Below are positions 3,076 to 41,536 of a stretch of 50,901 nucleotides of DNA, in pieces. A program made the position numbers and the translations under genes. Origin of the DNA: Candidatus Gastranaerophilales bacterium (lineage in GTDB: Bacteria; Cyanobacteriota; Vampirovibrionia; Gastranaerophilales; Gastranaerophilaceae); the NCBI GenBank assembly GCA_947587605.1, contig CANPYB010000001.1, forward strand, positions 1 to 50,901. The letters run 5' to 3'. Below the pieces are notes generated by a model, which searched no databases, had not been told where the DNA came from, and was given only the letters and a program-made list of their open reading frames with translations. Positions within the stretch are counted from its first letter, which is position 1. Every line of letters starts with the position of its first letter.

Positions 3076-4562
3076 TATTTATTTTTCTCCGATATTTCTT
3101 TTATTGCATTATCAAGTATATCTATCATTACATTTTTATAGTGAATTGCCTGTTTTTTCTTTTTCGCTTCAAATCTTAGAGTGAAAACAGGTTCTGTATT
3201 GCTTTGTCTTATGAGTGCAAACCCGTCGGGGAATATTATTCTGAGCCCGTCAAGTGTTACAATGTCAGTTATTTCGCTGTCAAAAATATTATGGTCTTTT
3301 TTAATTTCTGCTTGTACTTTTTTTAATACTTCTTTTTTATATTCATTTTTGCAGGAATATCTGACTTCATCCAGTGTGCATACTTTATCAAACGGAGTTA
3401 AAAGCTGAGATAATTTAAAATCTTTATTGTTCTTTTTATTTTTAGCAACGATTTCAATAATTCTGCAGCCTGCATATATTGCGTCGTCAAATCCGTAATA
3501 TCTGTCTTTAAAAAACATGTGCCCCGACATTTCACCTGCTAAAATTGCATTAACTTCTTTCATTTTAGACTTAATATACCCATGACCTGTCTTCGCCATG
3601 ACGGCTATTCCGCCTTGCGCATTTATTTCATCAAATAAAACTTGGGAGCATTTAACTTCCGAAACAATAACAGGCTTTTCTCCGCGTATAACAAGGTTTT
3701 TAATTATATCTTGAGCATAAATGTAAAGTAATTTATCTCCGGTAAGCGCATTGCCGTCAGAGTCTATTACACCAAGCCTGTCAGAGTCGCCGTCAAATGC
3801 AATGCCTAAATCGGCATTTGTTTCTTTAACTTTATTTTTAATGTCTTCCAAAGTGCTTAAATCACTCGGGTTAGGGTGGTGATTAGGAAAATCACCGTCG
3901 GGTTCAGAGTATAATTCAACCACTTCACAGCCTAAATCTCTGTATAATTTTGGTGCAACAACACCTGCAGTGCCGTTAGCACTGTCTATTACTACTTTTA
4001 TACCCTCTCCAATTCGTGCAAATTTCGTTACCATAGAATCTATGTACTGAGGGATAATATTATATAATCGGCTTTCACCGTGTTTTACCGATGTAATATC
4101 ATTTGACATTTGTTCATGAGTATATTCTTTGACTTTTTTTATTTCATTTTCATCTAAAGAAACTTTGTTATAAGTCATTTTTAAACCGTTATATTCGGGC
4201 GGATTATGGCTGGCGGTAACAATCAAAGCGGCGCTTATTTTAATGTTTTCACTGATATTTTCGGGATAGGATGTAAATTCAGAATAATATCCTAACGGAG
4301 TCGGAACTAAATCAAGATTTATGACATTAGCCCCCATGTGAACAATCCCTTTTGCAAGAATTTTTGCCAGTGATTCCGAATGTTTACGAGCGTCTTTTGA
4401 TATGGTAATCCAAATATCTTTAGGTTTTAAACCCGATTTTTTTTGTATATAATTAACAAATCCTTTACCTGTATAATAGAACAATTCTTCTGTGATATCT
4501 TCGCCGTATACACCTCTTATATCATTTTTTCCGAATGCTTCTAAGTTTAATATTTTTGTCAT
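3075..4562 (-). CDS. phosphoglucomutase/phosphomannomutase family protein
   Basis: Active-site TASHNPPEYNGLK, metal loop FDGDSDRLG, sugar loop GEMSGH. Its TAA overlaps the sppA ATG by 1 nt. Confidence 0.9.
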   Translation of the reverse strand: MTKILNLEAFGKNDIRGVYGEDITEELFYYTGKGFVNYIQKKSGLKPKDIWITISKDARKHSESLAKILAKGIVHMGANVINLDLVPTPLGYYSEFTSYPENISENIKISAALIVTASHNPPEYNGLKMTYNKVSLDENEIKKVKEYTHEQMSNDITSVKHGESRLYNIIPQYIDSMVTKFARIGEGIKVVIDSANGTAGVVAPKLYRDLGCEVVELYSEPDGDFPNHHPNPSDLSTLEDIKNKVKETNADLGIAFDGDSDRLGVIDSDGNALTGDKLLYIYAQDIIKNLVIRGEKPVIVSEVKCSQVLFDEINAQGGIAVMAKTGHGYIKSKMKEVNAILAGEMSGHMFFKDRYYGFDDAIYAGCRIIEIVAKNKKNNKDFKLSQLLTPFDKVCTLDEVRYSCKNEYKKEVLKKVQAEIKKDHNIFDSEITDIVTLDGLRIIFPDGFALIRQSNTEPVFTLRFEAKKKKQAIHYKNVMIDILDNAIKEISEKNK

Positions 4563-6870: not shown

Positions 6871-7446
6871 ATGGCAAATAAAAAAGATACGCTAATGACA
6901 ATGAAAAGCAGTGAAATGCTTTATAATTTTCTTGAGAATACAAATTTACATAAAAAAGATTTTGCTCAAATGATAGGTGTAACGCTTTCTTATGTTTACA
7001 ATTTAATTGATGAAACAATACCTTTTTCAACACGAAGCACGACTTTAGAACGTATAGCGACAGTAATGGATATATCACCCGAGGAATTCAGCGAATATAA
7101 AATTCCACAAGATCCTATAATAGTTGATGAGACGACAGAGTTTATAAGAGAAAAGCAAAAAGAAAAAAAGATGTCTACGGTTCAATTTTTAAAATCATTT
7201 CCGAGGAAACAAAGGTTAACTATCGTTGATATACTTAGAGGTGCAAGACCAATACCTTTAGATTGGGAGGATATAAGTTTAATAGCACAGGTTCTTGATG
7301 TATCAAAAGAGGAAATGTATGACTTTTGGGAAATGAGATTAAAGCAGGTGCTTCAAGCAGGCGGATTTAACTTTGAAAATAATCAAGGACTCGGGCTTGC
7401 AATGTTTGAATGTGCAAGAAATTACATATATAAAAATTCCAAGTAA
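6871..7446 (+). CDS. XRE-family helix-turn-helix protein
   Basis: HTH segment KKDFAQMIGVTLSYVYNLI. RBS gggag lies upstream of the ATG. Confidence 0.55.
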   Translation: MANKKDTLMTMKSSEMLYNFLENTNLHKKDFAQMIGVTLSYVYNLIDETIPFSTRSTTLERIATVMDISPEEFSEYKIPQDPIIVDETTEFIREKQKEKKMSTVQFLKSFPRKQRLTIVDILRGARPIPLDWEDISLIAQVLDVSKEEMYDFWEMRLKQVLQAGGFNFENNQGLGLAMFECARNYIYKNSK

Positions 7447-8966: not shown

Positions 8967-9040
<74 letters not shown>

Positions 9041-9136
9041 TTTTTTGTGTTTATTATTTACAATCGTAACATTTACTTTTATTTTGAGCAATTTTATTTT
9101 TTTACCTTCTTTATTTTCTGCATAGAAAGGAAAAAT

Positions 9137-10090
9137 ATGAAAATATCTGCTATTGGTTCTGACATAAATATCTTTAAGTCTTATACGAACAAGAATGCAC
9201 GATTGAATTTAATTCAAGATACTTTTATAAAATCAAATAATATAAATTTTAAAGGCAGTTCTCAAAACCCGCAATATGATGCACTTAAATCTGAAATGAC
9301 AGATTTGATTATGAATGAGGCAGGTTTTGATTTAAAATCAATAGAAAGAATAATTCAAAAATATTCACCGTCTACAACCTTTGATGATTATAAAAATCTT
9401 CCCAAAAATAACAATACTCATACTTATACTGCAGGATACACTCAGCAGCAGGTTAGCTTCTTGGTAAATGATAGCGGGCATTTAGTTGCAAAATCTTTAC
9501 CGCAAAAAATTTATGTAGCTGTTCCAAATACCTGTGATAAAAATGGCAGAATTATTTTTTTAGACAGAATTTTGCATGAATGTACACATGTTATGCAAAA
9601 TGAAACTTCTAATCATTTATCTTATGAGGATTTTTATAATCAATATTTTAGTAAAATGGATGATGTTGAAAAAGCACTTAATTCATTAAAAGCAGCAAAC
9701 TTTATTTATAACAGTGTCGAAAATGATGCACTTATGATTCTTGCTTATGGAATGAAAGATAAATTTGGTTCATTACCAAAACCAGTTTCTAAATATAAAA
9801 ATGATTTGAACAGTATTTTTATGAAAATAAAGCGTTCAAGTACTAAAACATATTTTACAAGTTTAATTGAAAATAGTGTTAAAAGTTTAGGAAGTAGTGT
9901 TGATAAGCAATTAATTATTGATTTTATAAAATTAAAATCCCAAAATGAAAAAGAGGCATATCAAAATGCGCTTAATTCCGACAAAGAATTGTTAAGTATT
10001 TCGGGATATACTGATTTCGATTTAAGAATTGAACTTTATGAGTCAATAATATCCGCTTGTGAAACCTTATTACAGAATAATAATCAGTAA
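9137..10090 (+). CDS. hypothetical protein with HExxH motif (possible zinc metallopeptidase)
   Basis: Start moved to MKISAIG, preceded by aggaaaaat. Contains LHECTHVMQNE. Its stop codon lies inside the 50-bp island repeat. Confidence 0.5.
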   Translation: MKISAIGSDINIFKSYTNKNARLNLIQDTFIKSNNINFKGSSQNPQYDALKSEMTDLIMNEAGFDLKSIERIIQKYSPSTTFDDYKNLPKNNNTHTYTAGYTQQQVSFLVNDSGHLVAKSLPQKIYVAVPNTCDKNGRIIFLDRILHECTHVMQNETSNHLSYEDFYNQYFSKMDDVEKALNSLKAANFIYNSVENDALMILAYGMKDKFGSLPKPVSKYKNDLNSIFMKIKRSSTKTYFTSLIENSVKSLGSSVDKQLIIDFIKLKSQNEKEAYQNALNSDKELLSISGYTDFDLRIELYESIISACETLLQNNNQ

Positions 10091-10137
10091 ATTATTTAAT
10101 TAAAATACAGCAAGAGCCTAAAATCATAATTGCGCTT
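10088..10137. repeat. left island direct repeat (attL-like)
   Basis: taaattatttaattaaaatacagcaaGagcctaaaatcataattgcgctt. It encodes an orphan copy of the last 14 codons of the EamA gene on the minus strand. Confidence 0.75.
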
Positions 10138-10484
10138 ACAGAAATTTTATGCGATTTTTCGTTTATTATTTTTAAAACATAGTGTTTTTTATATGAGCTA
10201 TACATTAATGAATCAGATATGGAGTTAAATATTCTGCGGTTTATTTGTAAATATCTGTTAATATGTTTTTTCTCCTTTTTCCTTTTTTTTAACGAATGAC
10301 GAGCAGAGGGTGCTTTACAAAAGTTTTGTATATTGATTTAAAGATTTTATTTTTTTTAAAAATAAAAGGTAGCAAAAACTTTAATTTTTGTATTTCTTTA
10401 TGCAATCTGTTTTTTTAAAATTGCTGCTTTAAAGTTTATGAATTATTGCTTTTCAGTAAGTAATTAAAAAAGAAAGGAAAAAAT

Positions 10485-11027
10485 ATGTGTACAGTAGAAC
10501 CAATTAGAAATATGGAAGATTTAAAAAAAATTGAAAAAATCTTAAAAAAACAAAGTTTAAGAAATTTACTATTATTCTTAATTGGAATTAATTGCGGTTT
10601 ACGTATTTCGGACATACTAAATTTGGACGTTAAAGATGTAAAGAATAAAAATTATATAAATATATTTGAGATTAAGACAGGGAAATATAAAAGATTTCCA
10701 ATTAACACGAAACTAAAACCGCTTTTAAAAAAATTTACCAAAGACAGAAATGATGATGAACCTTTATTTATTTCTATTTTTAATAATAGAATGGAACGAA
10801 CTCAATGTTACAGAATCATAAAAAAAGCCTGTCAAGATGCAGGTATAGATTATATTGTCGGAACTCATACTTTAAGAAAAACTTTTGGTTATCATCATTA
10901 TCAGAAATTCAAAGATGTTGCAATATTACAAAAAATATTCAATCATTTCACTCCTCAAGTAACATTAAAGTATATAGGTATAGATCAAGACCGGATAGAT
11001 GAGAGTTATATTAATTTTGTTTTATGA
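10485..11027 (+). CDS. small tyrosine recombinase/integrase (catalytic domain only, 180 aa)
   Basis: Catalytic signature present: GLRISD (R), HTLRKTF (H..R), FNHF (H), TLKYIG (Y). Confidence 0.85.
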   Translation: MCTVEPIRNMEDLKKIEKILKKQSLRNLLLFLIGINCGLRISDILNLDVKDVKNKNYINIFEIKTGKYKRFPINTKLKPLLKKFTKDRNDDEPLFISIFNNRMERTQCYRIIKKACQDAGIDYIVGTHTLRKTFGYHHYQKFKDVAILQKIFNHFTPQVTLKYIGIDQDRIDESYINFVL

Positions 11028-11055: not shown

Positions 11056-11238
11056 TTTATCTCAACAATATTATAGAATTGTTGAGATAAAATTAAAATT
11101 AACTATTTAAGTTTAACACAAAAATTTTTATATTTATAAATTGTTAAATATATTAATAAAATTTTTAACTGCTTAATTTCAGATATAGTTTGTATTCTAC
11201 CAATCTGAGCATACAACAATTCTATAATATTGTTGCAT
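11056..11238. promoter_or_regulatory. candidate invertible switch: two lox-like sites in inverted orientation flanking 129 bp
   Basis: Site 1 (11056-11091): 14-bp arms around spacer attataga. Site 2 (11211-11238): arms around spacer tctataat. The 22-bp cores 11063-11084 and 11214-11235 are exact reverse complements. Confidence 0.5.
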
Positions 11239-11278: not shown

Positions 11279-12133
11279 ATGGTAAAAGTTTCAATTATAA
11301 TACCTTGTTATAATCAAGGACAGTATGTTGCCGAAGCAATTAATTCCGCATTATCACAGACATACTCGGATATAGAAATAGTATGTATTAATGACGGTTC
11401 AACAGATAATACTCATAAAATAATTAAGAGTTTTGCAGATAAGTATAAAAATATATTATACATTAACAGTGAGAAAAATAATGGTGTAATTTATTCACGA
11501 AACACTGCAATTAACGCCTGTCATGGTGAGTATATATTACCATTAGATGCAGACGATAAAATAGAGTCTGCTTATGTAGAGAAGGCAGTAAAAATATTAG
11601 ATACTAATCCTAATATTGGGATTGTTTACTGCAAAGCAAGAATATTTGGCAAAAAAAATAGAAATTGGAAATTAAAAAAATTCAATAAATCTGACATATT
11701 ATATGAAAACTGTATTTTTAACACCGCATTGTTCAGAAAATCAGATTTTTTAAAAGTCGGAATGTATAAAAATTACATGATGAATGGTATGGAAGATTTT
11801 GATTTATGGCTTTCATTTATTGAACAAGGTCTTGATGTTTATCAAATTGATGAAGTTTTGTTTTATTATCGTAAATATGACCAAGAAACGAGAACACAGA
11901 TATTCCAAAAAAATCAAAATGAAATTTGGCTGTCGGTAATCAAAAATCACATAAATTTATATTTAAATGATAGACAATTTCTTGAAAGACTTATATTTTC
12001 TAAACCGTTAGAAGCAAGGAAAAAATATAAAAAATACAAAAACATTTTTTATATTTTACTTGCAATAACTGCTATTGAGTTAATGATAATTCTAATCTTT
12101 ATAATTACCTTAGTTTGGAGGGGTAATGTATAA
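11279..12133 (+). CDS. family 2 glycosyltransferase
   Basis: VSIIIPCYNQGQYVAEAINSALSQTY, INDGSTDNT and LDADD motifs, with a C-terminal TM segment. Confidence 0.85.
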   Translation: MVKVSIIIPCYNQGQYVAEAINSALSQTYSDIEIVCINDGSTDNTHKIIKSFADKYKNILYINSEKNNGVIYSRNTAINACHGEYILPLDADDKIESAYVEKAVKILDTNPNIGIVYCKARIFGKKNRNWKLKKFNKSDILYENCIFNTALFRKSDFLKVGMYKNYMMNGMEDFDLWLSFIEQGLDVYQIDEVLFYYRKYDQETRTQIFQKNQNEIWLSVIKNHINLYLNDRQFLERLIFSKPLEARKKYKKYKNIFYILLAITAIELMIILIFIITLVWRGNV

Positions 12134-13439
12134 AGAAAAGGTTTTTATTATAACCCAGAATGAAATTGTAAATACTACAGGCGGAGCTATTACATCTTTT
12201 ACAGATATTTCTAAATTTCTTTGCGAAAAATATGATGTATATGCTATTTGCTATACAAAAGAAACCCGAAATCCTAATTTAGATGAAAGAATTAAATTTA
12301 TAAATTTATACAATTATTATGGAGGCAGAAATACATTTTCAAAGGCTATAAATCTTTTTATTAAAGAGAATAGACCGTCTATTATTCTTTTTTTCTTTGC
12401 ATATTTATATGTTAATGCAAAATTGTCTAAAAAATATAATGATATTCCAAGAATATTATTATTTAGGTCAAGACCTGATTTTTATTTTGCGGTACATAAA
12501 AAAACAAAACATTTAAAAGATATATATATTAATACAATTTCACAAATTTTATTTCCAAGCTATCACAAATTATTACCCGAATATATAAGGAATAAAAATG
12601 TTGTTTGTATTCCAAATCCAACGAAATCGGTATTAAAATATATAAATACCGATGCGGAAAATAAGAAAATAATATATTTAAGCCGAATAGACTGTTGGAA
12701 AGGTCATGAATTTTTAATAAAGTCTTTTGCTCTGATTGCAAATAAATATAAAGATTGGACTATTGATATATACGGGCAGTCTCAGCCGCCGGAGCTTGAG
12801 CTGCAATTAAAGAAACTCGTTAAATCTCTGCACTTGGAAAATCAAATTCATTTTTGCGGAGTGACGAAAAATCCGTTTGAAACATTCATAAACTATGATT
12901 TTTGTGTATTTCCGTCTTATTTTGAGGGATTTCCCAATGGACTTTCAGAAGCGTTAAGCGTAGGTTTGCCTGCGGTCGGATTTAAAGGTGCCAGCGGTGT
13001 AAATGAATTAATTATTGATAATAAGAACGGGCTTTTGGCAGAAGAAGACTATAGCGATTTTGCTGAGAAAATTGAAATTTTAATAAATGATAAGAAATTG
13101 CGTTCTAAATTTAGTCAAGAAGCAGTTAAATCAATGAAAAAGTATGATTACAATATTATAAAAGATACTTGGATTAATCTGATAAATGAAACATTAAGCA
13201 ATAAGTGTACGGAACAGAGTAAGGAATTATATTCGGTTTCAGAAAAGTATGAATTATTTTCCATTAATAAATTACTTTCTATGCAAAATTCAAACATGAA
13301 ATTTTCATATCGTAATTTTGCAGAAAAAATATTTTCTATAAAAAATTATTACTCAAATTCCTGTAAGAAAATTTTAACAATATTAGGAATGAAAATAACA
13401 ATAAAAAAGCAGTTAAAGGAGAACGGGAGTGGGTATTAG
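12126..13439 (+). CDS. family 4 (GT-B, Glycos_transf_1) glycosyltransferase
   Basis: FPSYFEGFPNGLSEALSVGLPAVG motif. RBS ggagg; 8-nt overlap with the upstream gene. Confidence 0.85.
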   Translation: MYKEKVFIITQNEIVNTTGGAITSFTDISKFLCEKYDVYAICYTKETRNPNLDERIKFINLYNYYGGRNTFSKAINLFIKENRPSIILFFFAYLYVNAKLSKKYNDIPRILLFRSRPDFYFAVHKKTKHLKDIYINTISQILFPSYHKLLPEYIRNKNVVCIPNPTKSVLKYINTDAENKKIIYLSRIDCWKGHEFLIKSFALIANKYKDWTIDIYGQSQPPELELQLKKLVKSLHLENQIHFCGVTKNPFETFINYDFCVFPSYFEGFPNGLSEALSVGLPAVGFKGASGVNELIIDNKNGLLAEEDYSDFAEKIEILINDKKLRSKFSQEAVKSMKKYDYNIIKDTWINLINETLSNKCTEQSKELYSVSEKYELFSINKLLSMQNSNMKFSYRNFAEKIFSIKNYYSNSCKKILTILGMKITIKKQLKENGSGY

Positions 13440-14184
13440 TATAGGAATTATCGGCTGTGGATTTATTGGCGGAGCATTAAAAAAATGGATAGAAGAACAC
13501 AATCCGTCAATTAATATTTTGGTTTCAGATCCGCCAAAGGGAATGAATGATGATGTTTCAAAAGCTGATGCGATATTTATCAGTATTCATATTCCGACCG
13601 AGAAAAACGGAACACAAGATTTAACGCTGTTAAAAGAAATAATCGAAAATCTGCCTTTGAAAAAACCGATATTCATAAGAACGACAATAACTCCCGGCAC
13701 ATCAGACAGATTATCAAAAGAAACAGGCAGGCATGTATATTTTATGCCGGAATTTTTAACGGAACGAACAGCTTATGAAGATTTTTGTTCTCAGCCTATG
13801 GTGTTTACTGCAGAACCGGAATTACTAAGTTTGATTTTTAAAGGTAAAAAACACATAGAAATGTCTTCCTTAGAGGCAGAAATTACGAAATATGCGCACA
13901 ATGTATTCGGCGCATTAAAGGTAACATATTTTAACGGAATTTATGACTTATGCAAGAGATATGAGGCAAATTACAGAAAAATTCAACAAGGAATTTTATT
14001 AAGCGGATATATAAATACACCACACACACAAGTTCCCGGTCCTGACGGCAAATTCGGATACGGAGGCAAATGTTTTCCTAAAGATGTAAATGCGTTTACA
14101 AAAATTACGGAAGGACTTCCGCTGCACAGTTTATTAAAGGAATTACAACCTTTAAATATTAAATTTAGAGGTGAAGATAAATAA
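13429..14184 (+). CDS. compact UDP-glucose/GDP-mannose dehydrogenase-like protein
   Basis: Rossmann motif IGIIGCGFIGG, PEFLTERTAYEDF (cf. NPEFLREG) and catalytic-Cys motif GGKCFPKD. At 251 aa there is no C-terminal nucleotide-sugar-binding domain. Confidence 0.6.
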   Translation: MGISIGIIGCGFIGGALKKWIEEHNPSINILVSDPPKGMNDDVSKADAIFISIHIPTEKNGTQDLTLLKEIIENLPLKKPIFIRTTITPGTSDRLSKETGRHVYFMPEFLTERTAYEDFCSQPMVFTAEPELLSLIFKGKKHIEMSSLEAEITKYAHNVFGALKVTYFNGIYDLCKRYEANYRKIQQGILLSGYINTPHTQVPGPDGKFGYGGKCFPKDVNAFTKITEGLPLHSLLKELQPLNIKFRGEDK

Positions 14185-15203
14185 TGAAAGTATTAGTTAC
14201 GGGTAGTGCAGGGTTTATAGGTTATTTTGTTGCGTTGAGACTGCTAAAAGCAGGCTATACCGTTATTGGTATTGATAATGTTAATGATTATTATGATGTT
14301 AATTTAAAAGAAGCGCGGCTTAAAAATTTACATCAATTTGAAAATTTTATAGAAGAAAGAATAGATTTAGTTGATAGAATAAATTTAGAACGTATTTTTA
14401 AAGAGCATAAACCACAAAGAGTTTTAAATTTAGCTGCCCAGGCAGGAGTAAGATATAGTTTTGAAAATCCGTATGCTTATATAGATTCAAACATTACAGG
14501 TTTTGTAAATATAGAAGAACAGTGCAGACATAATGATGTTAAGCATTTTGTTTTTGCTTCAACCGCCTCAATTTATGGGGCAAATAAAAAAATGCCATGG
14601 GATGAAACAGACGGCTGTAATCATCAATTAAGTTTGTATGCAGCGACAAAAAAAGCAAATGAAGTAATAGCACATTCTTATGCGCATTTATTTAATATCC
14701 CGACAACGGGGTTAAGATTCTTTAATGCATATGGGCCCTGGGGCAGACCGGATATGGCTTTATTTATATTCGTAAAAAATATTATTGAAGGAAAACCTAT
14801 AAATGTATTTAATAATGGTCAAATGATTAGAGATTTTACTTATGTAGAAGATATTGCCGAGGGTGTTTGTAAAGTGCTTTTAGGGAAAGTTCCCGAAATT
14901 GATGAAAGTTGGAATGGGAATTCAGCTGTTCCTGACCCGTCTTCAAGCGGAGTAGCACCTTTTAAAATTTATAATATAGGGAATTCTCATCCTGTTGAAC
15001 TTATGCGGTATATAGAGCTTATGGAAAAAGAAATAGGCAAAAAAGCTATTATAAACTATATGCCGATACAACCGGGAGAAGTAGTTAAATCTGAAGCTGA
15101 TAATTCTGATCTTTATAAAAATTTTGATTTTAAACCTAAGGTGAATGTTGAAGAAGGTGTTCACAACTTTGTTAAATGGTATCGGGAATTTTATGGGAAG
15201 TAG
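14184..15203 (+). CDS. NAD-dependent epimerase, UDP-glucuronate 4-epimerase-like
   Basis: MKVLVTGSAGFIGYF, the YAATKKANE (YxxxK) motif, and the DNVNDYYDVNLKEARL signature typical of UDP-GlcA epimerases. Confidence 0.8.
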   Translation: MKVLVTGSAGFIGYFVALRLLKAGYTVIGIDNVNDYYDVNLKEARLKNLHQFENFIEERIDLVDRINLERIFKEHKPQRVLNLAAQAGVRYSFENPYAYIDSNITGFVNIEEQCRHNDVKHFVFASTASIYGANKKMPWDETDGCNHQLSLYAATKKANEVIAHSYAHLFNIPTTGLRFFNAYGPWGRPDMALFIFVKNIIEGKPINVFNNGQMIRDFTYVEDIAEGVCKVLLGKVPEIDESWNGNSAVPDPSSSGVAPFKIYNIGNSHPVELMRYIELMEKEIGKKAIINYMPIQPGEVVKSEADNSDLYKNFDFKPKVNVEEGVHNFVKWYREFYGK

Positions 15204-15206
15204 TTT

Positions 15207-15704
15207 ATGAAAATATTTAAAAAAATAAAATTTTACGACGGAAAAACAGAAATATTTTTATTTAACATAAAAGTATTTTCATACAGAAAAAAAGTTAATA
15301 ACGGATATGACAATGCCGAATACGTAAGGAGACTTGGCGTAAAAGTCGGTGAAAATACATATATTTGTTCCGGCTGTATATGGGGAAGTGAACCTTATTT
15401 AATTGAAATAGGAAAAAATTGTTTGTTATCGATAAACATAACTTTTTTAACTCATGATGCGTCGGTTCATGTGTGTAAACAGTATTTCTCCCAATCATAT
15501 ACAAGTGCAAACGCTGAAAATAATGCAATTTTTGGAAAAATCAAAATAGGGGACAATTGTTTCATTGGTTGTTCGTCAATAATTTTGCCGAACATAACTA
15601 TAGGAAATAACTGTGTAATTGGTGCAGGAAGTGTAGTGACAAAAAATATTCCCGATGGTGAAGTTTGGGGGGGGGCAGCCAGCTCATTATATAAAGAAAA
15701 CTAA
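15207..15704 (+). CDS. hexapeptide-repeat sugar O-acetyltransferase, C-terminus set by a G9 tract
   Basis: Left-handed beta-helix repeats (IGDNCFIGCSSIILPNITIGNNCVIGAGSVV). The G9 tract at 15667-15675 falls in the VWGG motif. Confidence 0.8.
   Translation: MKIFKKIKFYDGKTEIFLFNIKVFSYRKKVNNGYDNAEYVRRLGVKVGENTYICSGCIWGSEPYLIEIGKNCLLSINITFLTHDASVHVCKQYFSQSYTSANAENNAIFGKIKIGDNCFIGCSSIILPNITIGNNCVIGAGSVVTKNIPDGEVWGGAASSLYKEN
15667..15675 (+). repeat. homopolymeric G9 tract (candidate slipped-strand phase-variation site)
   Basis: Counted directly: tttGGGGGGGGGcagcc. Confidence 0.9.
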
Positions 15705-15865
15705 GGAATTAGCTGAAAAAATAGAAAATATTTTAAACAGCAGTGAACAGCTGGAACTGCAAAATATTATACAACAGCGGAACAGGAGTATGAAATAAAT
15801 AAACAAGGAAAATTAAGAATGAAAAAATACATAACAGGAGCAAAAGTATATAAAGGAGATTGTTT

Positions 15866-16727
15866 ATGTCGTTAAAAAAAGAAATTTTTTCAATAAGTAA
15901 CAAAATAATAAATAACAAGTCATATAAAGAAATTAAAATTTTGGGTATAAGATTAAGGTTTAAATCGAATCTTTCAAGACCATATAAATTTAAGGTAAAT
16001 TCAAAATATTTATCTAATAAATCAAAATTAGATCCATTCAAATATGATGACGATATGAATGATTTATACACATATTTTTTAAATTCTAATGATAAAAGTA
16101 TTGATAAAATGCATCATTACTTTCACATTTATAATAATCATTTTGAAAAATTCAGAAATAAACCCGTAAATATTTTGGAAATAGGAGTTTGCAAAGGAGG
16201 TTCTTTGCGAATGTGGAAAAAATATTTTGGAGAAAAATGCCATATATATGGGGTTGATATAGACCCTGCCTGCAAACAATATGAAGATTTAGAAAATAAT
16301 ATACATATTATGATTGCAGACCAGGGAAATCTAAAATCAATGCAGGATTTAATGAAACAGCTTCCCCAAATAGATATATTAATAGAAGATGGCGGGCATA
16401 CAACAAATCAGCAAATAACAACATTCGAAGCCTGCTACGATAAAATTTCCGATCTGGGGGGGGGTATATTTGGTAGAAGATTTGCATACTAACTATTGGA
16501 CAGAATTTATTGACTCCAAAAATACTTTTGTTGAATATGCAAAAGAACATATTGATGCTCTTAATGCCTGTTTCTTTAATTCAAATGACAGGTATAGAAG
16601 TTTGGAGGGAAAAGACAATTTGGAAGTTCCGTTATTTACTTGTATCACAGATAGCATTTCTTTTTATAACTCAATAATTGTTTTTACAAAAAAGAGAAAT
16701 TCAATTCCATTAAGTGAAAGAAGATAA
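15866..16727 (+). pseudogene. class I SAM-dependent (sugar O-) methyltransferase split by a frameshift at a G9 tract (phase-OFF state)
   Basis: Track ORFs 15860-16492 and 16470-16727 are two halves of one enzyme. LEIGVCKGGSLRMW and IEDGGH lie upstream, VEDLHTNYW downstream, and G8 would fuse them. ATG at 15866 with RBS aaggag. Confidence 0.8.
16456..16464 (+). repeat. homopolymeric G9 tract (candidate phase-variation site)
   Basis: Counted directly: gatctGGGGGGGGGtatatt. Confidence 0.9.
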
Positions 16728-16800
16728 AATCGGGTAGTCAGTATAAAACAAGGAAAAAATAAGAAAAATTTTAGAAAAATAAAAAAAGGAGCGATGTAAT

Positions 16801-17943
16801 ATGCAAAATGAAAATATGATACCTTTATTTAAAGTTTTTGTATCAAAAGATATAGATAAACCGTTACTTGAAACTATTCATAGCGGATGGATTGGCGAAG
16901 GACCGAGGGTTCAAGAATTTGAGGCGGTTTTGAAAAAATATTTTGGAAATGATAATTTGGTAACTTTAAATTCGGGTACATCGGGTCTGCATTTGGCTTA
17001 TCATATGGCATTACATCAAAATGATTATAAAGGTTATTATAATTCAAATGTAGATGAAATAATAACTACCCCTATTACCTGTACAGCAACAAATACTCCA
17101 ATTTTATGTAACGGAGCAAAAATAATTTGGGCTGATGTTGATCCTGTGACCGGTTCAATATCACCTGAAGATATAGAAAACAAAATAACTAAAAATACAA
17201 AAGCTGTTACAATGGTTCACTGGGGTGGTAATCCTTGTGATATAGATAAAATTAATGAAATTGCTCATAAAGCAGGAATTATGACAATAGAAGATGGTGC
17301 GCATTCTATGGGGATGGAATATAAAGGTAAAAAATTCGGCAACCATTCAGATTTTTCTGTTAATTCGCTTCAAGCAATTAAACATGTAACTTCTGTTGAC
17401 GGAGGTTTATTATGGATGAAATCTGAAAAAGATTATCAACGAGCAAAACTTTTAAAGTGGTATGGAATAGATAGAACAATAAGAGAAGGTATAGATTTAA
17501 GATGTGAAATAGATGTTCCGGAAGCCGGATACAAATTTCATATGAATGATGTTTGTGCATTAATAGGAAATGTTAATTTTAAACATTTACCGGAACTTCT
17601 TAAAAAACACAGAGATAATGCTAAATTTTATGATAAAGCATTTAAAAACTGTTCAAATGTTCTGCCTGTTTTGGAAAATCCTAACGGCAAATCTGCTTAT
17701 TGGCTGTATACAATTCATGTCGATAACAGAGACGAATTAATGCAAAAGTTAAAAAGTTTAAATATTATGTCTTCAAAAGTTCATGCAAGAAATGATACTC
17801 ACTCAATGTTTTCTGAATTTAAGTCCGAATTACCGGGAGTTGAAGCATTTAATAGAACACACTTATGCATTCCCGTAGGTTGGTGGGTAAGTGAAAACCA
17901 AAGAGAATATATTGCTGAACAAGTTATAAAGTATGCAAAGTAG
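16801..17943 (+). CDS. DegT/DnrJ/EryC1/StrS-family PLP-dependent sugar aminotransferase
   Basis: 380 aa with typical family layout: the IEDGAHSMG motif and a lysine region SLQAIKHVT. Confidence 0.85.
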   Translation: MQNENMIPLFKVFVSKDIDKPLLETIHSGWIGEGPRVQEFEAVLKKYFGNDNLVTLNSGTSGLHLAYHMALHQNDYKGYYNSNVDEIITTPITCTATNTPILCNGAKIIWADVDPVTGSISPEDIENKITKNTKAVTMVHWGGNPCDIDKINEIAHKAGIMTIEDGAHSMGMEYKGKKFGNHSDFSVNSLQAIKHVTSVDGGLLWMKSEKDYQRAKLLKWYGIDRTIREGIDLRCEIDVPEAGYKFHMNDVCALIGNVNFKHLPELLKKHRDNAKFYDKAFKNCSNVLPVLENPNGKSAYWLYTIHVDNRDELMQKLKSLNIMSSKVHARNDTHSMFSEFKSELPGVEAFNRTHLCIPVGWWVSENQREYIAEQVIKYAK

Positions 17944-17955
17944 GGGTGACTGTTA

Positions 17956-18585
17956 ATGAAAAAAATTCGAAGAAAATTAATCAATACGTTATTTAAAAAT
18001 AATATATTATATACAAGGCTTTATGTTTTTTTTCTTTATTTGAGTAAAAAGGAACTGAATTTGAATTTATGCTCCGGAACTTTATATGAAAAGGGCTGGA
18101 TAAATATTGATGAAAACGGTTCAAATAAAGTTGACTTGATTATGAATATAGTTAATATAAATAAATTTTTTAAAAAAAATTCAATAAAGAATATAAAAAT
18201 TATTCATGGACTTTCATATCTTAGATTTCATGAGGCTATAGATTTTTTGCAGTCTTGTTATAATTTGCTGGAAATTAAGGGGGGGGGGAAAATTATCATA
18301 GAATTTCCCGAAGTGAAAAAACTTTCAAATAGCATTATTAATATAAATTCTTTGTATGATGAAAAAAATTATTATGATTACATTGAAGCACTTCGTGCTT
18401 TTTATGCTTTTGATTTAGACCAGCATAAGAAAAAAGTTAAATATACTACATATAGATTTGGCTGGTCTGCAATGCATATTAAGTATGAATTGGAAAAACT
18501 TTCATATAAAAATATTGAAATAAAAAATCCGGAATATCACGATAAGAGATTAAATCGTGATGTCAGAATTGAAGCTCGGAAATAA
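17956..18585 (+). CDS. class I SAM-dependent methyltransferase-like protein carrying an in-frame G10 tract
   Basis: LNLCSGTLYEKGWINID (motif I-like) and LLEIKGGGKIIIEFP (post-I/III-like). The GGG is encoded by the G10 tract. Confidence 0.6.
   Translation: MKKIRRKLINTLFKNNILYTRLYVFFLYLSKKELNLNLCSGTLYEKGWINIDENGSNKVDLIMNIVNINKFFKKNSIKNIKIIHGLSYLRFHEAIDFLQSCYNLLEIKGGGKIIIEFPEVKKLSNSIININSLYDEKNYYDYIEALRAFYAFDLDQHKKKVKYTTYRFGWSAMHIKYELEKLSYKNIEIKNPEYHDKRLNRDVRIEARK
18279..18288 (+). repeat. homopolymeric G10 tract (candidate phase-variation site, currently in frame)
   Basis: Counted directly: attaaGGGGGGGGGGaaaatt. Confidence 0.9.
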
Positions 18586-18650
18586 AATGTACGGCAATTC
18601 TTTATAAAAATAGCCGATAATATTTAAATTTATGCGGATAGGATAAAACT

Positions 18651-19577
18651 ATGTTAAAAGATAAAAAAATAAATTTTATAACATCAACAGATGAAAATAC
18701 AGGTTCAACAAGAATTAGAGTATATGACTTAGTAAGAGAGTTAAAAAAAAGGGGCTATAATGTAACAATTAATGATAGTTCAAAAAAATCTGAAATCGTA
18801 GTATTTCAAAAAAGTAATTATAAATATTTAAGAAAACGTTTTTTTAAACTTTTGTTTAGTAATAAATTTTTAATATTTGATATTGATGATTTGTTTTTTG
18901 ATAAAATATTAAATCTTGTTAAATATTCGGATTTTGTTATTACAAGCTGTGAATATATGAGGGAACAATATTTAACATTTAATAAAAATATAGGAGTTCT
19001 GGGGGAAACACCTGATGTAATTGCGGAGGATATACCACTGCGAAATCCTATTGCAAATTTAAAGGAATGTAAGATAGGATGCTTTGGTACATCGTATAAT
19101 ATAACTTTGATAAAAAAATTCAATATAAAAGATGTTAAAATAATCACTCGAGGCGGGGATATTGAGTGGAGCAGAGAAACAGTTGATTATGATATCCAAA
19201 AATTTGATTTAATTGTAATTCCTCAAGAAAAAACTCCCGAAGGATTAGCAAAAGATAACTGCAGAATGTTAAAAACTCTTTATCTTGGTGTTCCTGCATT
19301 GGTTAGTGATATTCCGGAATACGTTAAACTTGCGGAGCTTGTAAATTATCCAAAAGAATTTATTGTACATGATGGTGAAGACTGGAACGAAAAAATTGAA
19401 AAAATAAAATCCGGTGAAATCAAGTTTGATTTTGATTTTGAAAAATGCAGAGAAATATTATACAAAAATTACAGTACAAAGGTAAGGACTGATATGTGGC
19501 TGGAAATTGTTTCAAGACATTATACTCAGCATAATCTAAAAAGACATTTGAAAAAGTTGTTCTTTCATTTGTTTTAG
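18651..19577 (+). CDS. putative glycosyltransferase (GT-B-like), weak call
   Basis: 308 aa. The C-terminal segment LGVPALVSDIPEYVKL resembles the GT4 donor-binding region. Last gene before the right repeat. Confidence 0.4.
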   Translation: MLKDKKINFITSTDENTGSTRIRVYDLVRELKKRGYNVTINDSSKKSEIVVFQKSNYKYLRKRFFKLLFSNKFLIFDIDDLFFDKILNLVKYSDFVITSCEYMREQYLTFNKNIGVLGETPDVIAEDIPLRNPIANLKECKIGCFGTSYNITLIKKFNIKDVKIITRGGDIEWSRETVDYDIQKFDLIVIPQEKTPEGLAKDNCRMLKTLYLGVPALVSDIPEYVKLAELVNYPKEFIVHDGEDWNEKIEKIKSGEIKFDFDFEKCREILYKNYSTKVRTDMWLEIVSRHYTQHNLKRHLKKLFFHLF

Positions 19578-34577: not shown

Positions 34578-37500
34578 CTATAATAAATTTAAAGTGCAAA
34601 TTTGTTTATAACTGCAGTATTGACAGGTATTATCAGTCCTTTCATCAGGGGGATTAAAATTCATTTTATCAATGTTTTCATAAACATAATTTATTTTATC
34701 TTTTATTATTTCGTTGTCCTCATTAGTGAGTGTTATGTAATAGTTTTTTTCTGAATCTTCGGCAAAAATAATTCCTGCTTTTGATACTTTTGTATTGGGA
34801 TTTGAAAGTTCAAATGCAAATTTATAAAATCTTAATTGATTTAAGTAATGTTCAAAATCCCCGCCGTCAATAATTTTATTCTTTGATTTAGCGCTTCCCG
34901 TTTTATAATCATAAAGTTCAAAAGTTCCGTCAGAATTCTTTTCAATCCTGTCAACAAAACCTTTTAAAAATTTGTTATTATAAGGAATATGGTTTAAATA
35001 TAATTCTGTTGCATAAATTCTTGAATATGGAATTTGAGTGAAATTTTTATAAAATTCAGTAAGTGATTTTTCGCCCCGAAGTGTAAATTCTTCTTTTTTA
35101 TTTTGAGATTCAAATTTTTGTTTGTTTATATAGTAGTGAAAATCCTCAATCATCTCGGATAAAGGTGGATAATTGTCTTTTTCCTTAGCTTTTTTTACTG
35201 CAGTTTCAAGAGTTTTATGTATTGCGCTTCCGTAGCTTGCGCTGTCTGATGAGTCTTCATATACGGGTATTTTTAATATTTCCGAGTATAAAAATCCTCT
35301 CGGACAGTTTAAATACGAGCTCATTGAACTGGGGCTTATAATAAATTCTTTTGTTCTTGCTTTTATTTCTTCATAAAAATCTGTTTTGTAGTCATATTTG
35401 CATTTTGTTATTGATTGAGCTATCTCAAGTGCGTAATTTTCTCTCGGCAGTTCGTGTGTATATGTTTGAGTTAAATTATCCTCCTCCGATATAACATTTG
35501 AAAGGTGGCGAGTTAATTCTTGCGGGCTCCCGTCAATAGAATTGGAGCACGAAAGCATTAAAAAATGTTTTGCTCTTGTTATGCCTACAAACAATAATCT
35601 TAATTGTTCGGATTCTTTTGCCTGCTCAATATCCGTATCAGTGTCATTTTTTTCAATAGGGAGTGTCATTGTCTTTGTTATTCTTTTTCCCTCCCATTTT
35701 CTTGCTGTTAAATTAGGGATAAAGACATAATCAAACTCACGACCTTTTGATGAATGTATGGTTAACAGCTGAACTGCATTTTGAGTATATTCTTCTTTAT
35801 CTATCAATATTGGAATGTTGCTTTCAAAAGAATTTTCAATGTGATTTATAAAATCCGACAATGTTTTTGTACTGTCCCGATTTATCAATCCTTGCGCTTC
35901 ATCAATAATCTTTTTAATTGCGTATATATTTTCACTTCTGTTTATTTCACAATCAAGATAGTATTTTAAAATCCCTGTTGCATTGACTGTTTCAATTATT
36001 AAATTTCTTATATTCTCACTTGATTTGTACATTCTTAAAAAATCATAGACGGAAATAAAATTTTCAACAGCCTGTCTGTTTTTCCATTGTCTTGATTTTA
36101 AATTTTCTTTAATGCTGCTTATTAAATCTTTTCCGTTAATCCTTGTTTTTTCTAAAAGAAAATTGTAATCTTCAAGGTCAAAGTTAAACGGTTCCGATAT
36201 TAAAAGCGCATATAATTTATCAGCATACATTTGATTGTTTTCTAATGCCTGCAAATAAAAATACACAATAATTGATGAATTTATATCAAAAATGCTTTTA
36301 TTTGATTTTATTTGATATTGAATATTTTTAGCTTCAAGCAGTTTTGCAAAATTAGTCAATTCATTATTATCTCTTGTCAGAATGGCAATTTTTGATAAAT
36401 CTTTTTCTCCGTCTTTGTTTGGGCAGTCATCAGATTTTATTAATTCTTCAATTTGAGAAACAATAAAGTTATTTTCCTGCTTTATATCTGCAAATGTATG
36501 AATTTGTATCTTCTTATTTAACGGAACAATATTAGGATTTTTCGCAGTTAATTTTTTTGAAATATTATAATTTGCAAATTTCGGGTTGTTTTCAAGTCTT
36601 GATTTATCTTGAGAAATAACTTTATAGCTGAAATCTAATATATTTTGAGTCGAACGGTTGTTTTCGTTTAAGCATATTACATTTGTATTAGGATATTTTA
36701 TTAAAAATTTTTCAAGAGTGTCTGTTTTTGCGCCTTGAAATTCATAAATAATTTGGTCATCATCGCCTACGACAAAAATATTATCTGTTTTTGCACCCTC
36801 TGCGAGTTTAAAAACTATGCTGTTTTGAGAATAATTAGTGTCTTGATATTCATCAACAAGAAAGTATTTGAATTGAGAAGCAGCCTGCCGTAAAAATTCA
36901 TTTTTGTACTCAAAAGCATCAAGCACAAGGCATATCATGTCATTAAAATCAATTAAATTATTTTTTTTCAGCTTAATATCATAGCATTCATAAATATCCC
37001 AAGCCTCTTTTGCTTTTCCCATTTTCTTTTTATGGTCATCAAGTGATTTTAAAAAGGTTTTAACGAGTTTTCCGTTTTCTTCACGCTCTTTGTATTCTTT
37101 GTTTAATTCGTTTAACTTTCCCATCCATTCTTTGTGCGTGTTTAGGGTGTTAAAGTATTCTTCTTTTGTTACTCTGTTTGATTTTATTTCATCAACGGCA
37201 CTTAAAAGTTCTGAAATGTAATAATAAGAATCTCCCCATTTTGTTTTGTAATATTGGGGTTTTATTTCGTCAATGACTTCTTTCATCAGGGCTCTTTTTG
37301 TAATGTCATCAATAAGACTTACCCCGTCTAATAATTCAAATTCATAAGGGTATTGCTTTATAATTTCATTACAAAAAGCGTGATAAGTATTAACAACAAC
37401 AGCGGATGCCTTAGCCCCGATATTTTTCACAAGTCTGGCTTTCATTTCGTTTGCGGCAGCCTCTGAATATGTCAAACATAAAACAGACTCAGGCTTAATT

Positions 37501-37664
37501 CCCGTTTCAAGCATATATTTAATACGCTCAATAATAGTAAATGTTTTACCGGTCCCCGGGCCTGCTAAAACCATAACGGGTCCGTCAATTGTTTTAATGC
37601 ACTCTAATTGCTTTGTATTAGGGATAATTTGTGTATTTTTTTCTTGAATTATTGACATATCCAA
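34578..37664 (-). CDS. UvrD/PcrA-type SF1 helicase fused to a C-terminal PD-(D/E)XK (Cas4/AddB-like, Fe-S) nuclease
   Basis: Helicase motifs: Walker A AGPGTGKT, motif II FLVDEYQDTN, TIHSSKGREFDYVF, VGITRAK. Nuclease motifs: YLNCPRGF, GFVDRIE...LYDYKTGS, QLRFY, CQYCSYKQIC. Confidence 0.85.
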   Translation of the reverse strand: MDMSIIQEKNTQIIPNTKQLECIKTIDGPVMVLAGPGTGKTFTIIERIKYMLETGIKPESVLCLTYSEAAANEMKARLVKNIGAKASAVVVNTYHAFCNEIIKQYPYEFELLDGVSLIDDITKRALMKEVIDEIKPQYYKTKWGDSYYYISELLSAVDEIKSNRVTKEEYFNTLNTHKEWMGKLNELNKEYKEREENGKLVKTFLKSLDDHKKKMGKAKEAWDIYECYDIKLKKNNLIDFNDMICLVLDAFEYKNEFLRQAASQFKYFLVDEYQDTNYSQNSIVFKLAEGAKTDNIFVVGDDDQIIYEFQGAKTDTLEKFLIKYPNTNVICLNENNRSTQNILDFSYKVISQDKSRLENNPKFANYNISKKLTAKNPNIVPLNKKIQIHTFADIKQENNFIVSQIEELIKSDDCPNKDGEKDLSKIAILTRDNNELTNFAKLLEAKNIQYQIKSNKSIFDINSSIIVYFYLQALENNQMYADKLYALLISEPFNFDLEDYNFLLEKTRINGKDLISSIKENLKSRQWKNRQAVENFISVYDFLRMYKSSENIRNLIIETVNATGILKYYLDCEINRSENIYAIKKIIDEAQGLINRDSTKTLSDFINHIENSFESNIPILIDKEEYTQNAVQLLTIHSSKGREFDYVFIPNLTARKWEGKRITKTMTLPIEKNDTDTDIEQAKESEQLRLLFVGITRAKHFLMLSCSNSIDGSPQELTRHLSNVISEEDNLTQTYTHELPRENYALEIAQSITKCKYDYKTDFYEEIKARTKEFIISPSSMSSYLNCPRGFLYSEILKIPVYEDSSDSASYGSAIHKTLETAVKKAKEKDNYPPLSEMIEDFHYYINKQKFESQNKKEEFTLRGEKSLTEFYKNFTQIPYSRIYATELYLNHIPYNNKFLKGFVDRIEKNSDGTFELYDYKTGSAKSKNKIIDGGDFEHYLNQLRFYKFAFELSNPNTKVSKAGIIFAEDSEKNYYITLTNEDNEIIKDKINYVYENIDKMNFNPPDERTDNTCQYCSYKQICTLNLL

Positions 37665-37936: not shown

Positions 37937-39082
37937 ATGGAAAAGAAGAAAGAATCATATAAGTTTATTGATTTATTTGCAGGAGCAGGTGGCTTGAGCC
38001 TTGGTTTAGAACAAGCGGGTTTTCAAGTGGCTTTTGCCAATGAAATTAATCCTACATGCGCTGAAACATATTTGTATAATAGAAATTTATCTAGTGACCA
38101 AATTTTTGTTGGTGATATAAATGACCTTATAAAAAACATTAATAAATATAAAAAGTATTTTAATGATGTTTCTTTGGTATGCGGTGGTCCCCCCTGTCAA
38201 GGCTTTTCCATGGCGAACAGGCAGAGATTAATAGATGACCCCAGAAACAAATTATATAAAAGTTATTTAGAATTTTTGAGTAACATTGTGCCTAAATTTT
38301 TTATTATGGAGAATGTTAAAGGCATGGCAAATAAAATTGATGAGATATTAGAAGATTTTCACAATCAACTTGGAAATCAATATAATATTGAATATAGAAT
38401 ACTTAATGCAAAAGACTTTGGAATTCCGCAAAATAGAGAACGTCTTTTTATTATTGGTAATAGAATTGGAATTAAGTCAAAAGATATATTTGATGAAGTT
38501 GAATTATATAAAGTTGTTGATCAAGTAACTTTAGGTAATGCTATTTTAGATTTACCAAAATTAAAACCTAATAAATTAAAAAATAATACGGATTATGAGG
38601 ATGATGATTGCGGATATTTTGAAAAAAATTATAACTATACAAAAACTAATTTTTATAATTTTATAAATAATGGTCGAACTATAACAAAGTTATATAATCA
38701 CAAAAGCAGATATAATAATGAAAGAGATATAAAAATATTCGGGTTGTTACCGCAAGGTTGTAATTCTCTTCATGAATCTATAAAAGATATTATGCCTTAT
38801 CAAAGCAGAAATAATATTTTCAAAGATAAATATTTTAAACTGTCTGAAAATAACATTTGTAAAACAATCACATCTCATATGAAATTTGACTGTAACATGT
38901 ACATTCACCCAACACAAGCAAGAGGTTTATCTCCAAGAGAGGCAGCACGAGTGCAAACATTTCCTGATGATTATGTCTTTAAAGGTCCTCAAAATAGTTG
39001 GTATATGCAAATTGGCAATGCAGTGCCTGTTAAATTGGCTGAGGTAATAGGAAAATGTATAATAAACAAAATAAAGAATTAA
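37937..39082 (+). CDS. DNA (cytosine-5) methyltransferase 1
   Basis: Motif I DLFAGAGGLSLG, IV GGPPCQGFS, VI ENVKGM, VIII QNRERLFIIG, X QIGNAVPV. Confidence 0.95.
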   Translation: MEKKKESYKFIDLFAGAGGLSLGLEQAGFQVAFANEINPTCAETYLYNRNLSSDQIFVGDINDLIKNINKYKKYFNDVSLVCGGPPCQGFSMANRQRLIDDPRNKLYKSYLEFLSNIVPKFFIMENVKGMANKIDEILEDFHNQLGNQYNIEYRILNAKDFGIPQNRERLFIIGNRIGIKSKDIFDEVELYKVVDQVTLGNAILDLPKLKPNKLKNNTDYEDDDCGYFEKNYNYTKTNFYNFINNGRTITKLYNHKSRYNNERDIKIFGLLPQGCNSLHESIKDIMPYQSRNNIFKDKYFKLSENNICKTITSHMKFDCNMYIHPTQARGLSPREAARVQTFPDDYVFKGPQNSWYMQIGNAVPVKLAEVIGKCIINKIKN

Positions 39083-41267: not shown

Positions 41268-41340
41268 TAAATTATAACTAATTTTTCTCATAAAACTTAA
41301 CCAAGTATAAAATTTTTAAACTACATAACATTCAAAAAAT

Positions 41341-41357
41341 AAACCCGTCTGTTCAAC
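41341..41357. repeat. right copy of the 17-bp direct repeat, immediately downstream of tRNA-Ser
   Basis: aaacccgtctgttcaac. On the minus strand it is part of a hairpin plus T-run following the tRNA. Confidence 0.7.
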
Positions 41358-41373
41358 CCGGGCGGATTAAAAA

Positions 41374-41460
41374 CGGAGAAGGGGGGATTCGAACCCCCGG
41401 CAGAGTTGCCCCTGCACAAACGTTCCAGGTTTGCACCTTAAACCACTCGGACACCTCTCC
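41374..41460 (-). tRNA. tRNA-Ser (anticodon GGA)
   Basis: 87 nt. Acceptor ggagagg/cttctcc, anticodon loop ctggaac, long variable arm, T arm ggggg-ttcgaat-ccccc. Confidence 0.9.
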
Positions 41461-41536
41461 GTATAGGTTTAATCTATTTTAACGGATTAAATCTTTATTG
41501 TAAATACAAATTTTTACTTTTTTGTATAATTATTTT

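Follow-up and report, generated by a model that had tools for sequence, protein, structure and literature searches.

An intragenic run of nine G residues interrupts a putative sugar O-methyltransferase gene within a 50,901-bp stretch (31.3% G+C) of contig CANPYB010000001.1 (assembly GCA_947587605.1), a stretch analyzed here in full and referred to below as the window. Our analysis indicates that the gene is probably a contingency locus altered by slipped-strand mispairing, the assembled consensus having been caught in its OFF phase. Loci of this kind carry a G or C tract of mutable length, about 7-8 residues or longer, in their reading frame or promoter, and in the methyltransferase gene a G9 lies within the coding sequence. 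The phase-OFF reading is further strengthened by two neighboring poly-G tracts and by homologous loci that differ in tract length only. The three tracts are numbered in order along the window, the methyltransferase run being tract 2, and switching at tract 2 itself would be expected by analogy with these loci.

The split methyltransferase gene

The first-pass annotation of this DNA had proposed that a G9 tract splits a class I S-adenosylmethionine (SAM) methyltransferase into two open reading frames (ORFs) and that the loss of one G fuses the halves. Both statements were borne out, since nine consecutive G residues occupy positions 16456-16464 and an in silico G8 build yields a single protein of 286 amino acids (aa), where about 287 aa had been estimated. 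The features concerned are the following.

16456-16464, forward strand: tract 2, a G run of exactly 9; G8 and G11 are in frame (ON), G9 is OFF
15866-16492, forward strand: 5' ORF of the putative sugar O-methyltransferase, 208 aa in the G9 state, with the SAM-binding motif ILEIGVCKGGS, D175 and H178
16465-16727, forward strand: 3' part of the methyltransferase in the +1 register, read as an ORF from TTG 16470

The 5' ORF begins at ATG 15866, with AAGGAG 8 nt upstream, and stops at TAA 16490-16492, so that the 208-aa product of the G9 state ends ...ISDLGGGIFGRRFAY. The downstream ORF (16470-16727) is translated as (M)VEDLHTNYWTEF... ((M)VEDLHTNYW...), and it had been placed in the -1 frame; the coordinates instead put it in the +1 register (15866 = 2 mod 3, 16470 = 0 mod 3). 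The complete 3' part (16465-16727) encodes the Mg2+-site residues E204-D205, followed by the final strands of the Rossmann sheet and a C-terminus that is conserved. Among the tract-length variants built in silico, G8 and G11 give 286 and 287 aa, and G7, G9 and G10 give 202, 208 and 203 aa, respectively; the G8 protein reads ...ISDLGGVYLVEDLHTNYWTEF... over the junction. A change of one repeat unit therefore toggles the gene between a full-length and a shortened product, and no second lesion was found in it.

The fused protein was compared with Pfam, with protein databases and with solved structures. It matches Methyltransf_24 (PF13578) over residues 104-205 with 32.6 bits, above the gathering cut-off of 26.3. 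A homologue search among 5.8 billion proteins returned 197 matches, the best intact ones being 286-287 aa long, 60-61% identical and covering 99% of the G8 query, and a scan of species-representative genomes identified a 285-aa, 67%-identical orthologue in another Gastranaerophilales metagenome-assembled genome (MAG), here locus L011. With these intact homologues of 285-287 aa, the G8 or G11 protein can be aligned end to end (99-100% of length, 61-67% identity). Moreover, in a family alignment of 18 sequences, 17 of them homologues, all 34 invariant columns are kept in the G8 protein. No block of the family is better conserved than the junction GVYLVEDLHTNYW, where E204, D205, T208, Y210 and W211 are invariant; in the alignment it reads ...KISDLGG/VYLVEDLHTNYW (slash at the junction) compared to a family consensus of ...KIxxNGVYLVEDLHTNYW. 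These results sustain the earlier statement that G8 restores a conserved GG-hydrophobic-EDLHT block, and the G8 build holds up in the kind of check suggested with it, an alignment or hidden Markov model search. They also support, through the full-length alignment and the presence of every invariant residue, the earlier view that the gene is phase-OFF and not decayed, its halves carrying no other lesion.

Structural comparison provided insight into the likely chemistry. The nearest solved structures by sequence are MycE (3SSM, E 1.6e-17) and a chain of 8IA9 (E 2.6e-15), and both alignments continue across the junction (GGlYviEDmwTaYW). An AlphaFold2 model of the G8 protein (predicted local distance difference test, pLDDT, 87; predicted template modeling score, pTM, 0.81) places a beta-strand at residues 197-204 that spans the junction, and Foldseek ranks 1-13 for this model are all MycE or SpnK (E 1e-16 to 8.5e-14). 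The active site of MycE consists of Asp275, His278 and Asp304, both aspartates holding the Mg2+ ion (PMC9275233). With a chain-numbering offset of +20 for MycE, fixed by the spacing of these three residues and by Tyr208, they align with D175, H178 and D205, all three of which are invariant in the family alignment. D205, the counterpart of the Mg2+ ligand Asp304, is encoded 3' of the frameshift. The gene is thus, as far as sequence and predicted structure can tell, a putative Mg2+/SAM-dependent sugar O-methyltransferase of MycE/SpnK-like type (class I, Methyltransf_24/CmcI-like), and the 208-aa G9 product should be inactive because D205 and all residues after it are lost.

MycE and SpnK (3SSM/3SSN/3SSO and 8IA9) are Mg2+/SAM-dependent deoxysugar O-methyltransferases of macrolide pathways with which the window protein is predicted to share the fold of the catalytic domain (Foldseek about 1e-16, 27% identity over 233 columns), and the DxGxH and GG-x-hydrophobic-ED motifs are common to both. 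The sequence match to MycE is limited to residues 82-214 of the query and 199-333 of the chain. Neither the N-terminal auxiliary domain of MycE nor its Tyr208 loop is present in the window protein, which is consequently best regarded as a shorter relative and not as a MycE orthologue; it is about 110 aa shorter, the deposited MycE chain having 419 residues compared to 286 aa here. The settings differ as well, as MycE and SpnK act in polyketide pathways, whereas the window gene sits in a cell-surface glycan cluster.

The possibility was also considered that the full-length enzyme is made from the G9 allele itself, through +1 ribosomal frameshifting or transcriptional slippage, which would give constitutive, if weak, expression. 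On a run of G, tRNA-Gly can re-pair in the +1 frame, and long homopolymers are known to allow slippage of RNA polymerase. The sequence shows no evident stimulatory element, however, and neither a downstream structure nor a Shine-Dalgarno-like stimulator was noted; the codon that follows the run, ATA, is common in this AT-rich genome, and the homologues use a single frame. We therefore regard such recoding as highly improbable.

Two neighboring tracts and the origin of the runs

In addition to the methyltransferase tract, two further poly-G tracts lie nearby on the same strand.

15667-15675, forward strand: tract 1, G9, in a hexapeptide acetyltransferase gene; G8 gives 196 aa
15207-15798, forward strand: sugar acetyltransferase gene (left-handed beta-helix), frameshifted
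18279-18288, forward strand: tract 3, G10, in frame (ON), encoding K-GGG-K; G7 and G13 are in frame too
17956-18585, forward strand: gene for a 209-aa protein of a narrow, Gastranaerophilales-restricted family

At G9, the acetyltransferase is read as an ORF of 165 aa (15207-15704), with the remainder up to 15798 in the +1 register, so that the last 37 residues of the enzyme are replaced by 9 others and most of the protein is kept. The G8 form (196 aa) ends ...VWGGQPAHYIKKTKELAEKIENIL..., and the intact L011 orthologue (191 aa) reads ...VWAGNPAHFIKKTKDLAKKQEVLL..., with ...VWAGNPAHFIKKTKDL... at the site of the tract. The 209-aa protein has no Pfam match and only three homologues were found; its model (pLDDT 66) gave Foldseek matches that are all class I SAM methyltransferases (best E 6e-6), and on the weak evidence of this modest model it probably adopts that fold. 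In the assembled state, the acetyltransferase is OFF (or altered at its C-terminus), the methyltransferase is OFF and the third gene is ON.

The occurrence of these runs goes well beyond chance. Three G runs of at least 9 fall on one strand within 2.6 kb, all in glycan-modification genes, compared to an expectation for the window of between 0.0035 (base composition) and 0.017 (first-order Markov). A homopolymer scan detected no other G or C run longer than 6 anywhere in the 50.9 kb, and the longest A or T run is only 8 despite 69% A+T. The tracts also go against codon usage, as GGG is used less often than any other glycine codon (101 of 813) and the preferred Gly-Gly dicodon is GGC-GGA (23 of 63); GGG-GGG accounts for four of the 63, with one inside each of the three tracts.

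Comparison with orthologues points in the same direction for each run. At tract 2, the methyltransferase has one residue more than its family (DLGG vs -NG/-DG), and the L011 orthologue reads GAT GAT GGA GTT at that site. At tract 3, the third gene has two extra residues (LLEIKGGGK vs LLE--EGG/NDG/QGG in its three homologues). The tract 1 site is TGGGCGGGA in L011 and TGGGGGGGG in the window; given the L011 sequence, two substitutions would merge two short runs into G8. All three tracts are, on these alignments, derived relative to the orthologues.

Runs of 9-10 G are error-prone on most sequencing platforms, and an assembly or sequencing miscount was weighed accordingly, in which the true main allele would be G8 (ON) and the extra G a homopolymer error of the consensus. 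In line with such a miscount, both frameshifted tracts call for the identical correction of -1. The same uniform correction that repairs tracts 1 and 2, however, breaks tract 3 (G10). Moreover, seventy A/T runs of 7-8 nt inside long ORFs are all in frame, and ORFs of at least 120 aa cover 89.5% of the window; together these indicate that no general homopolymer error is apparent. We consider a miscount improbable, and it would change the phase that is read here but not the nature of the gene as a contingency locus, as the tract and its two neighbors would remain.

Tract-length alleles in related loci and another copy of the window locus

Evidence of tract-length change in nature comes from related loci, where ON and OFF alleles of poly-G tracts occur both in the glycan loci of close relatives and in the methyltransferase subfamily itself. 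Within the order, contigs L098 and L099, from two different runs, carry a Gastranaerophilales-type glycan locus with a 70% orthologue of the third gene; their 8458 aligned bp show 99.92% identity and only one gap. This gap is a tract-length difference, G8 in L098 (ON; 11658-11665; a 230-aa hexapeptide acetyltransferase) versus G9 in L099 (OFF; 7311-7319; ORFs of 152 and 59 aa). A second G8 is present in L098 at 3300-3307, near the 3' end of a GT1 gene.

Outside the order, the nearest methyltransferase cluster is P0002 (60-61% identity, 287 aa), found in the gut MAG 'Alphaproteobacteria Lapin-001 bin79' (locus L014). Its gene bears a G10 (1796-1805) in a different loop, TDTAGGGKMEMP near residue 249, and not in beta-strand 4, from which we conclude that this tract arose independently of the one in the window. 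A C9 (2527-2535) follows in the next gene, of Methyltransf_11 type, and a G10 (2835-2844) is intergenic, so that three tracts lie within 1.05 kb. The 90% cluster of P0002 contains proteins of 287, 260, 268 and 257 aa, and the tract is precisely where their sequences begin to differ. The contigs show G10 (ON, 287 aa) in L014 and L097, G9 (260 aa) in L091-L094, and G10 with an extra adjoining A in L095 and L096, an OFF form of 268 aa. Across the eight contigs of this locus, the C tract has 8, 9 or 10 residues and the intergenic tract ranges from G8 to G13; between L091 and L097, two tract-length gaps are the only differences in 2358 bp, with 0 mismatches. The sister locus (L014 and the ENA/Logan metagenome contigs L091-L097) shares with the window the methyltransferase subfamily and a poly-G tract; length polymorphism is seen there directly, and the genome background differs. 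The extra A beside the G10 of L095 and L096 could be a base-call artefact at the end of a tract and in that respect lends the miscount explanation some weight.

Another copy of the window locus itself, L010 (ENA, sample ERZ27060014, coverage 1.76), is identical to the window over 1.3 kb except for one single-nucleotide polymorphism (SNP), which gives E174D in the methyltransferase, and one deletion. The deletion removes 134 bp of the acetyltransferase (window 15530-15663), with TTTGG microhomology ending at the poly-G tract, and is either a real population allele or a low-coverage artefact. This independent, low-coverage contig repeats the G9 at tract 1, which speaks against a miscount. It terminates 25 nt before tract 2. 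The shortened 208-aa methyltransferase is a singleton cluster; among 15 billion proteins, no match was found to either fused protein (G8 or G11), to the 3' ORF of 85 aa or to the remainder of the acetyltransferase. Neither the left nor the right flank of tract 2 was matched when JGI metagenomes were scanned for the exact patterns, and an exact-protein look-up of the window DegT aminotransferase returned no contig.

Several observations weigh against the phase-OFF reading and should be considered together. No second copy covering tract 2 was found in the databases searched, and tract 1, present in the window and in L010 as its only other copy, has the same length of G9 in both. Most of the related Gastranaerophilales loci examined (L001-L009, L011 and L015, the first nine chosen as loci with a DegT at least 90% identical) have no G or C run of 7 or more; poly-G switching is accordingly not a general trait of Gastranaerophilales. 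Two of the three tract genes are OFF, and residue 174 of the methyltransferase is E in the window, where D is conserved at 90% or more in the family and is found in L010 too. The two OFF genes, the 134-bp deletion of L010 and E174 could reflect relaxed selection on the cassette.

In another explanation, the methyltransferase is a recent true pseudogene, part of an unneeded and decaying cassette, in which the G9 frameshift is the first lesion and no adaptive switching takes place. Two adjacent frameshifted genes, the further and irreversible deletion in L010, the replacement of a nearly invariant D by E174, and a slot between the epimerase and DegT genes that is freely exchanged among strains would all agree with decay. 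What decay accounts for less readily is that the sole lesion in each gene falls exactly in a poly-G tract, and that the 87 codons of the 3' part form an open frame that is conserved throughout (base composition gives an estimated chance of about 7e-4 that such a stretch lacks a stop by accident). The tracts, moreover, are derived expansions against codon bias and limited to these genes, and homologous genes toggle ON and OFF by tract length in nature. On balance, we regard a pseudogene as unlikely and retain slipped-strand phase variation as the probable explanation.

Several other length differences were inspected as candidates for repeat switching and set aside. Gene-length differences among L001-L009 (589 vs 528 aa and 398 vs 372 aa) accompany SNPs and a 25-bp indel and involve no change in repeat length; P0005, P0009, P0013 and P0014, inspected as possible shortened forms, proved to be ordinary homologues, complete or partial. 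In the L011-type methyltransferase, the split into P0290 and P0014 is, as judged from the proteins, apparently a frameshift in a short T run and not in poly-G.

The glycan locus and the proposed biology of switching

The contig belongs to an uncultured Gastranaerophilales (Melainabacteria) gut bacterium, as its TyrS shares 84-93% identity with proteins bearing the name Candidatus Gastranaerophilales or Avigastranaerophilus. With ligA, tyrS, pth and three tRNAs on it, the contig is chromosomal. All three tract genes belong to one locus.

11279-19577, forward strand: co-directional glycan biosynthesis cluster

The first four genes of the cluster encode a GT2, a GT1, a short UDP-glucose dehydrogenase-like protein and an NAD-dependent epimerase/dehydratase, and these are followed by the acetyltransferase, the methyltransferase, a DegT aminotransferase, the 209-aa protein and a 308-aa protein of unknown function. 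The UDP-glucose-dehydrogenase-like ORF (251 aa) was considered as a pseudogene and rejected, since it measures 250-262 aa in all related loci. Related Gastranaerophilales contigs have the same framework with exchanged genes between the epimerase and DegT (window 14184-16800): a GT2 in L001, a GT10 (fucosyltransferase-like) in L002-L007, an acetyltransferase, a second DegT and a methyltransferase in L011, and in L098 an inverted block with another Methyltransf_24 gene and its own small integrase. Because the genes in this slot differ among strains, it represents a hot spot of glycan diversification by cassette exchange.

In the mechanism that we propose, the methyltransferase would decorate the surface glycan made by the surrounding cluster, and slipped-strand mispairing at replication would alter the tract by one G at high frequency. 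Missing mismatch repair raises such slippage in Campylobacter. The G8 or G11 allele would give the full 286/287-aa enzyme; at G9, translation would stop 9 codons past the tract, and everything from beta-strand 4 onward, including E204-D205, would be lost. Three tracts would allow up to 8 combinations of glycan decoration in a population, of which the assembled consensus would represent acetyl-OFF, methyl-OFF and third-ON. The target may be a surface glycan under diversifying selection by phage or host immunity.

Homopolymer phase variation of surface glycans is textbook knowledge for a handful of pathogens in culture, namely Campylobacter, Helicobacter, Neisseria and Haemophilus. The capsule and lipooligosaccharide loci of Campylobacter jejuni resemble the window in having intragenic poly-G tracts of 9-10 in a low-G+C genome, a frameshifted glycan-modifying SAM methyltransferase, and several tracts per glycan locus, giving combinatorial 'phasotypes'. 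Specifically, six of the 29 poly-G/C tracts of strain NCTC11168 lie in the capsule cluster, including that of cj1426, a capsule heptose 6-O-methyltransferase that switches at about 2e-2 (PMC8437040). Phase-variable tracts of Campylobacter have modal lengths of 9 (53%) and 10 (26%), and SAM methyltransferases, such as Cj0170 (G8-13), are frequent targets (PMC6321876). C. jejuni differs in belonging to another phylum, and switching has been measured for cj1426, whereas it is inferred for the window; the likeness to cj1426 is one of logic and tract length. Tract 1, near the 3' end of the acetyltransferase gene, also resembles the homopolymeric tracts that are reported to switch C-terminal sequences in Helicobacter canadensis (PMC2823697). 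For Melainabacteria, repeat-driven phase variation was not encountered in the papers searched; the name occurs together with phase variation in two papers only, titled on hsdS invertons and on flagellin diversity, and neither has repeat-driven glycan switching as the subject of its title or abstract.

Further features of the window lie around the cluster. The cluster starts just after a tRNA-Arg(TCT), a 347-aa ORF without a Pfam family and a small integrase (window 8967-11027), and the G+C content falls to 24.5% at 10-12 kb; the cluster may be an island acquired from elsewhere. A perfect 22-nt inverted repeat (CAACAATATTATAGAATTGTTG and its reverse complement, 11063-11084 and 11214-11235) separates the gene for a 180-aa tyrosine recombinase (Pfam Phage_integrase, 10485-11027) from the first gene of the glycan operon; with 129 nt between the arms and promoter-like hexamers inside this segment, it looks like a candidate invertible promoter of the Bacteroides capsule type. 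The repeat was not found in the related loci examined, and no flipped copy was seen. Elsewhere in the window (37937-43282 and 34578-37664), a neighboring pair of genes for Dcm-type cytosine-5 DNA methyltransferases precedes a 368-aa NOV_C-domain protein and a two-domain phospholipase-D/NucT-like nuclease, and a UvrD/PcrA-type helicase of 1028 aa, ending in a Cas4-like nuclease, is encoded nearby; the region adjoins tRNA-Ser and tRNA-Met and probably represents an island for restriction-modification or defence.

That this methyltransferase subfamily gained poly-G independently in a second gut MAG suggests that this particular decoration has been under selection repeatedly. It is conceivable, although we lean somewhat against it, that the Gastranaerophilales, which are gut-dwelling, non-photosynthetic relatives of cyanobacteria, evolved on their own multi-gene poly-G phasotypes in the style of Campylobacter and use them to vary the acetyl and methyl groups on a surface glycan, with convergent tracts at different codons of the methyltransferase subfamily in at least two unrelated gut lineages and maybe an additional layer of invertible-promoter control. 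Automated annotation will label such genes as pseudogenes or split ORFs, and the consensus of a MAG will hide the ON alleles. Overall, the mechanism is a known one in an unstudied commensal lineage, essentially undocumented in uncultured commensals, and if the tracts switch, surface chemistry, and hence phage receptors and antigenicity, would be heterogeneous within the population.

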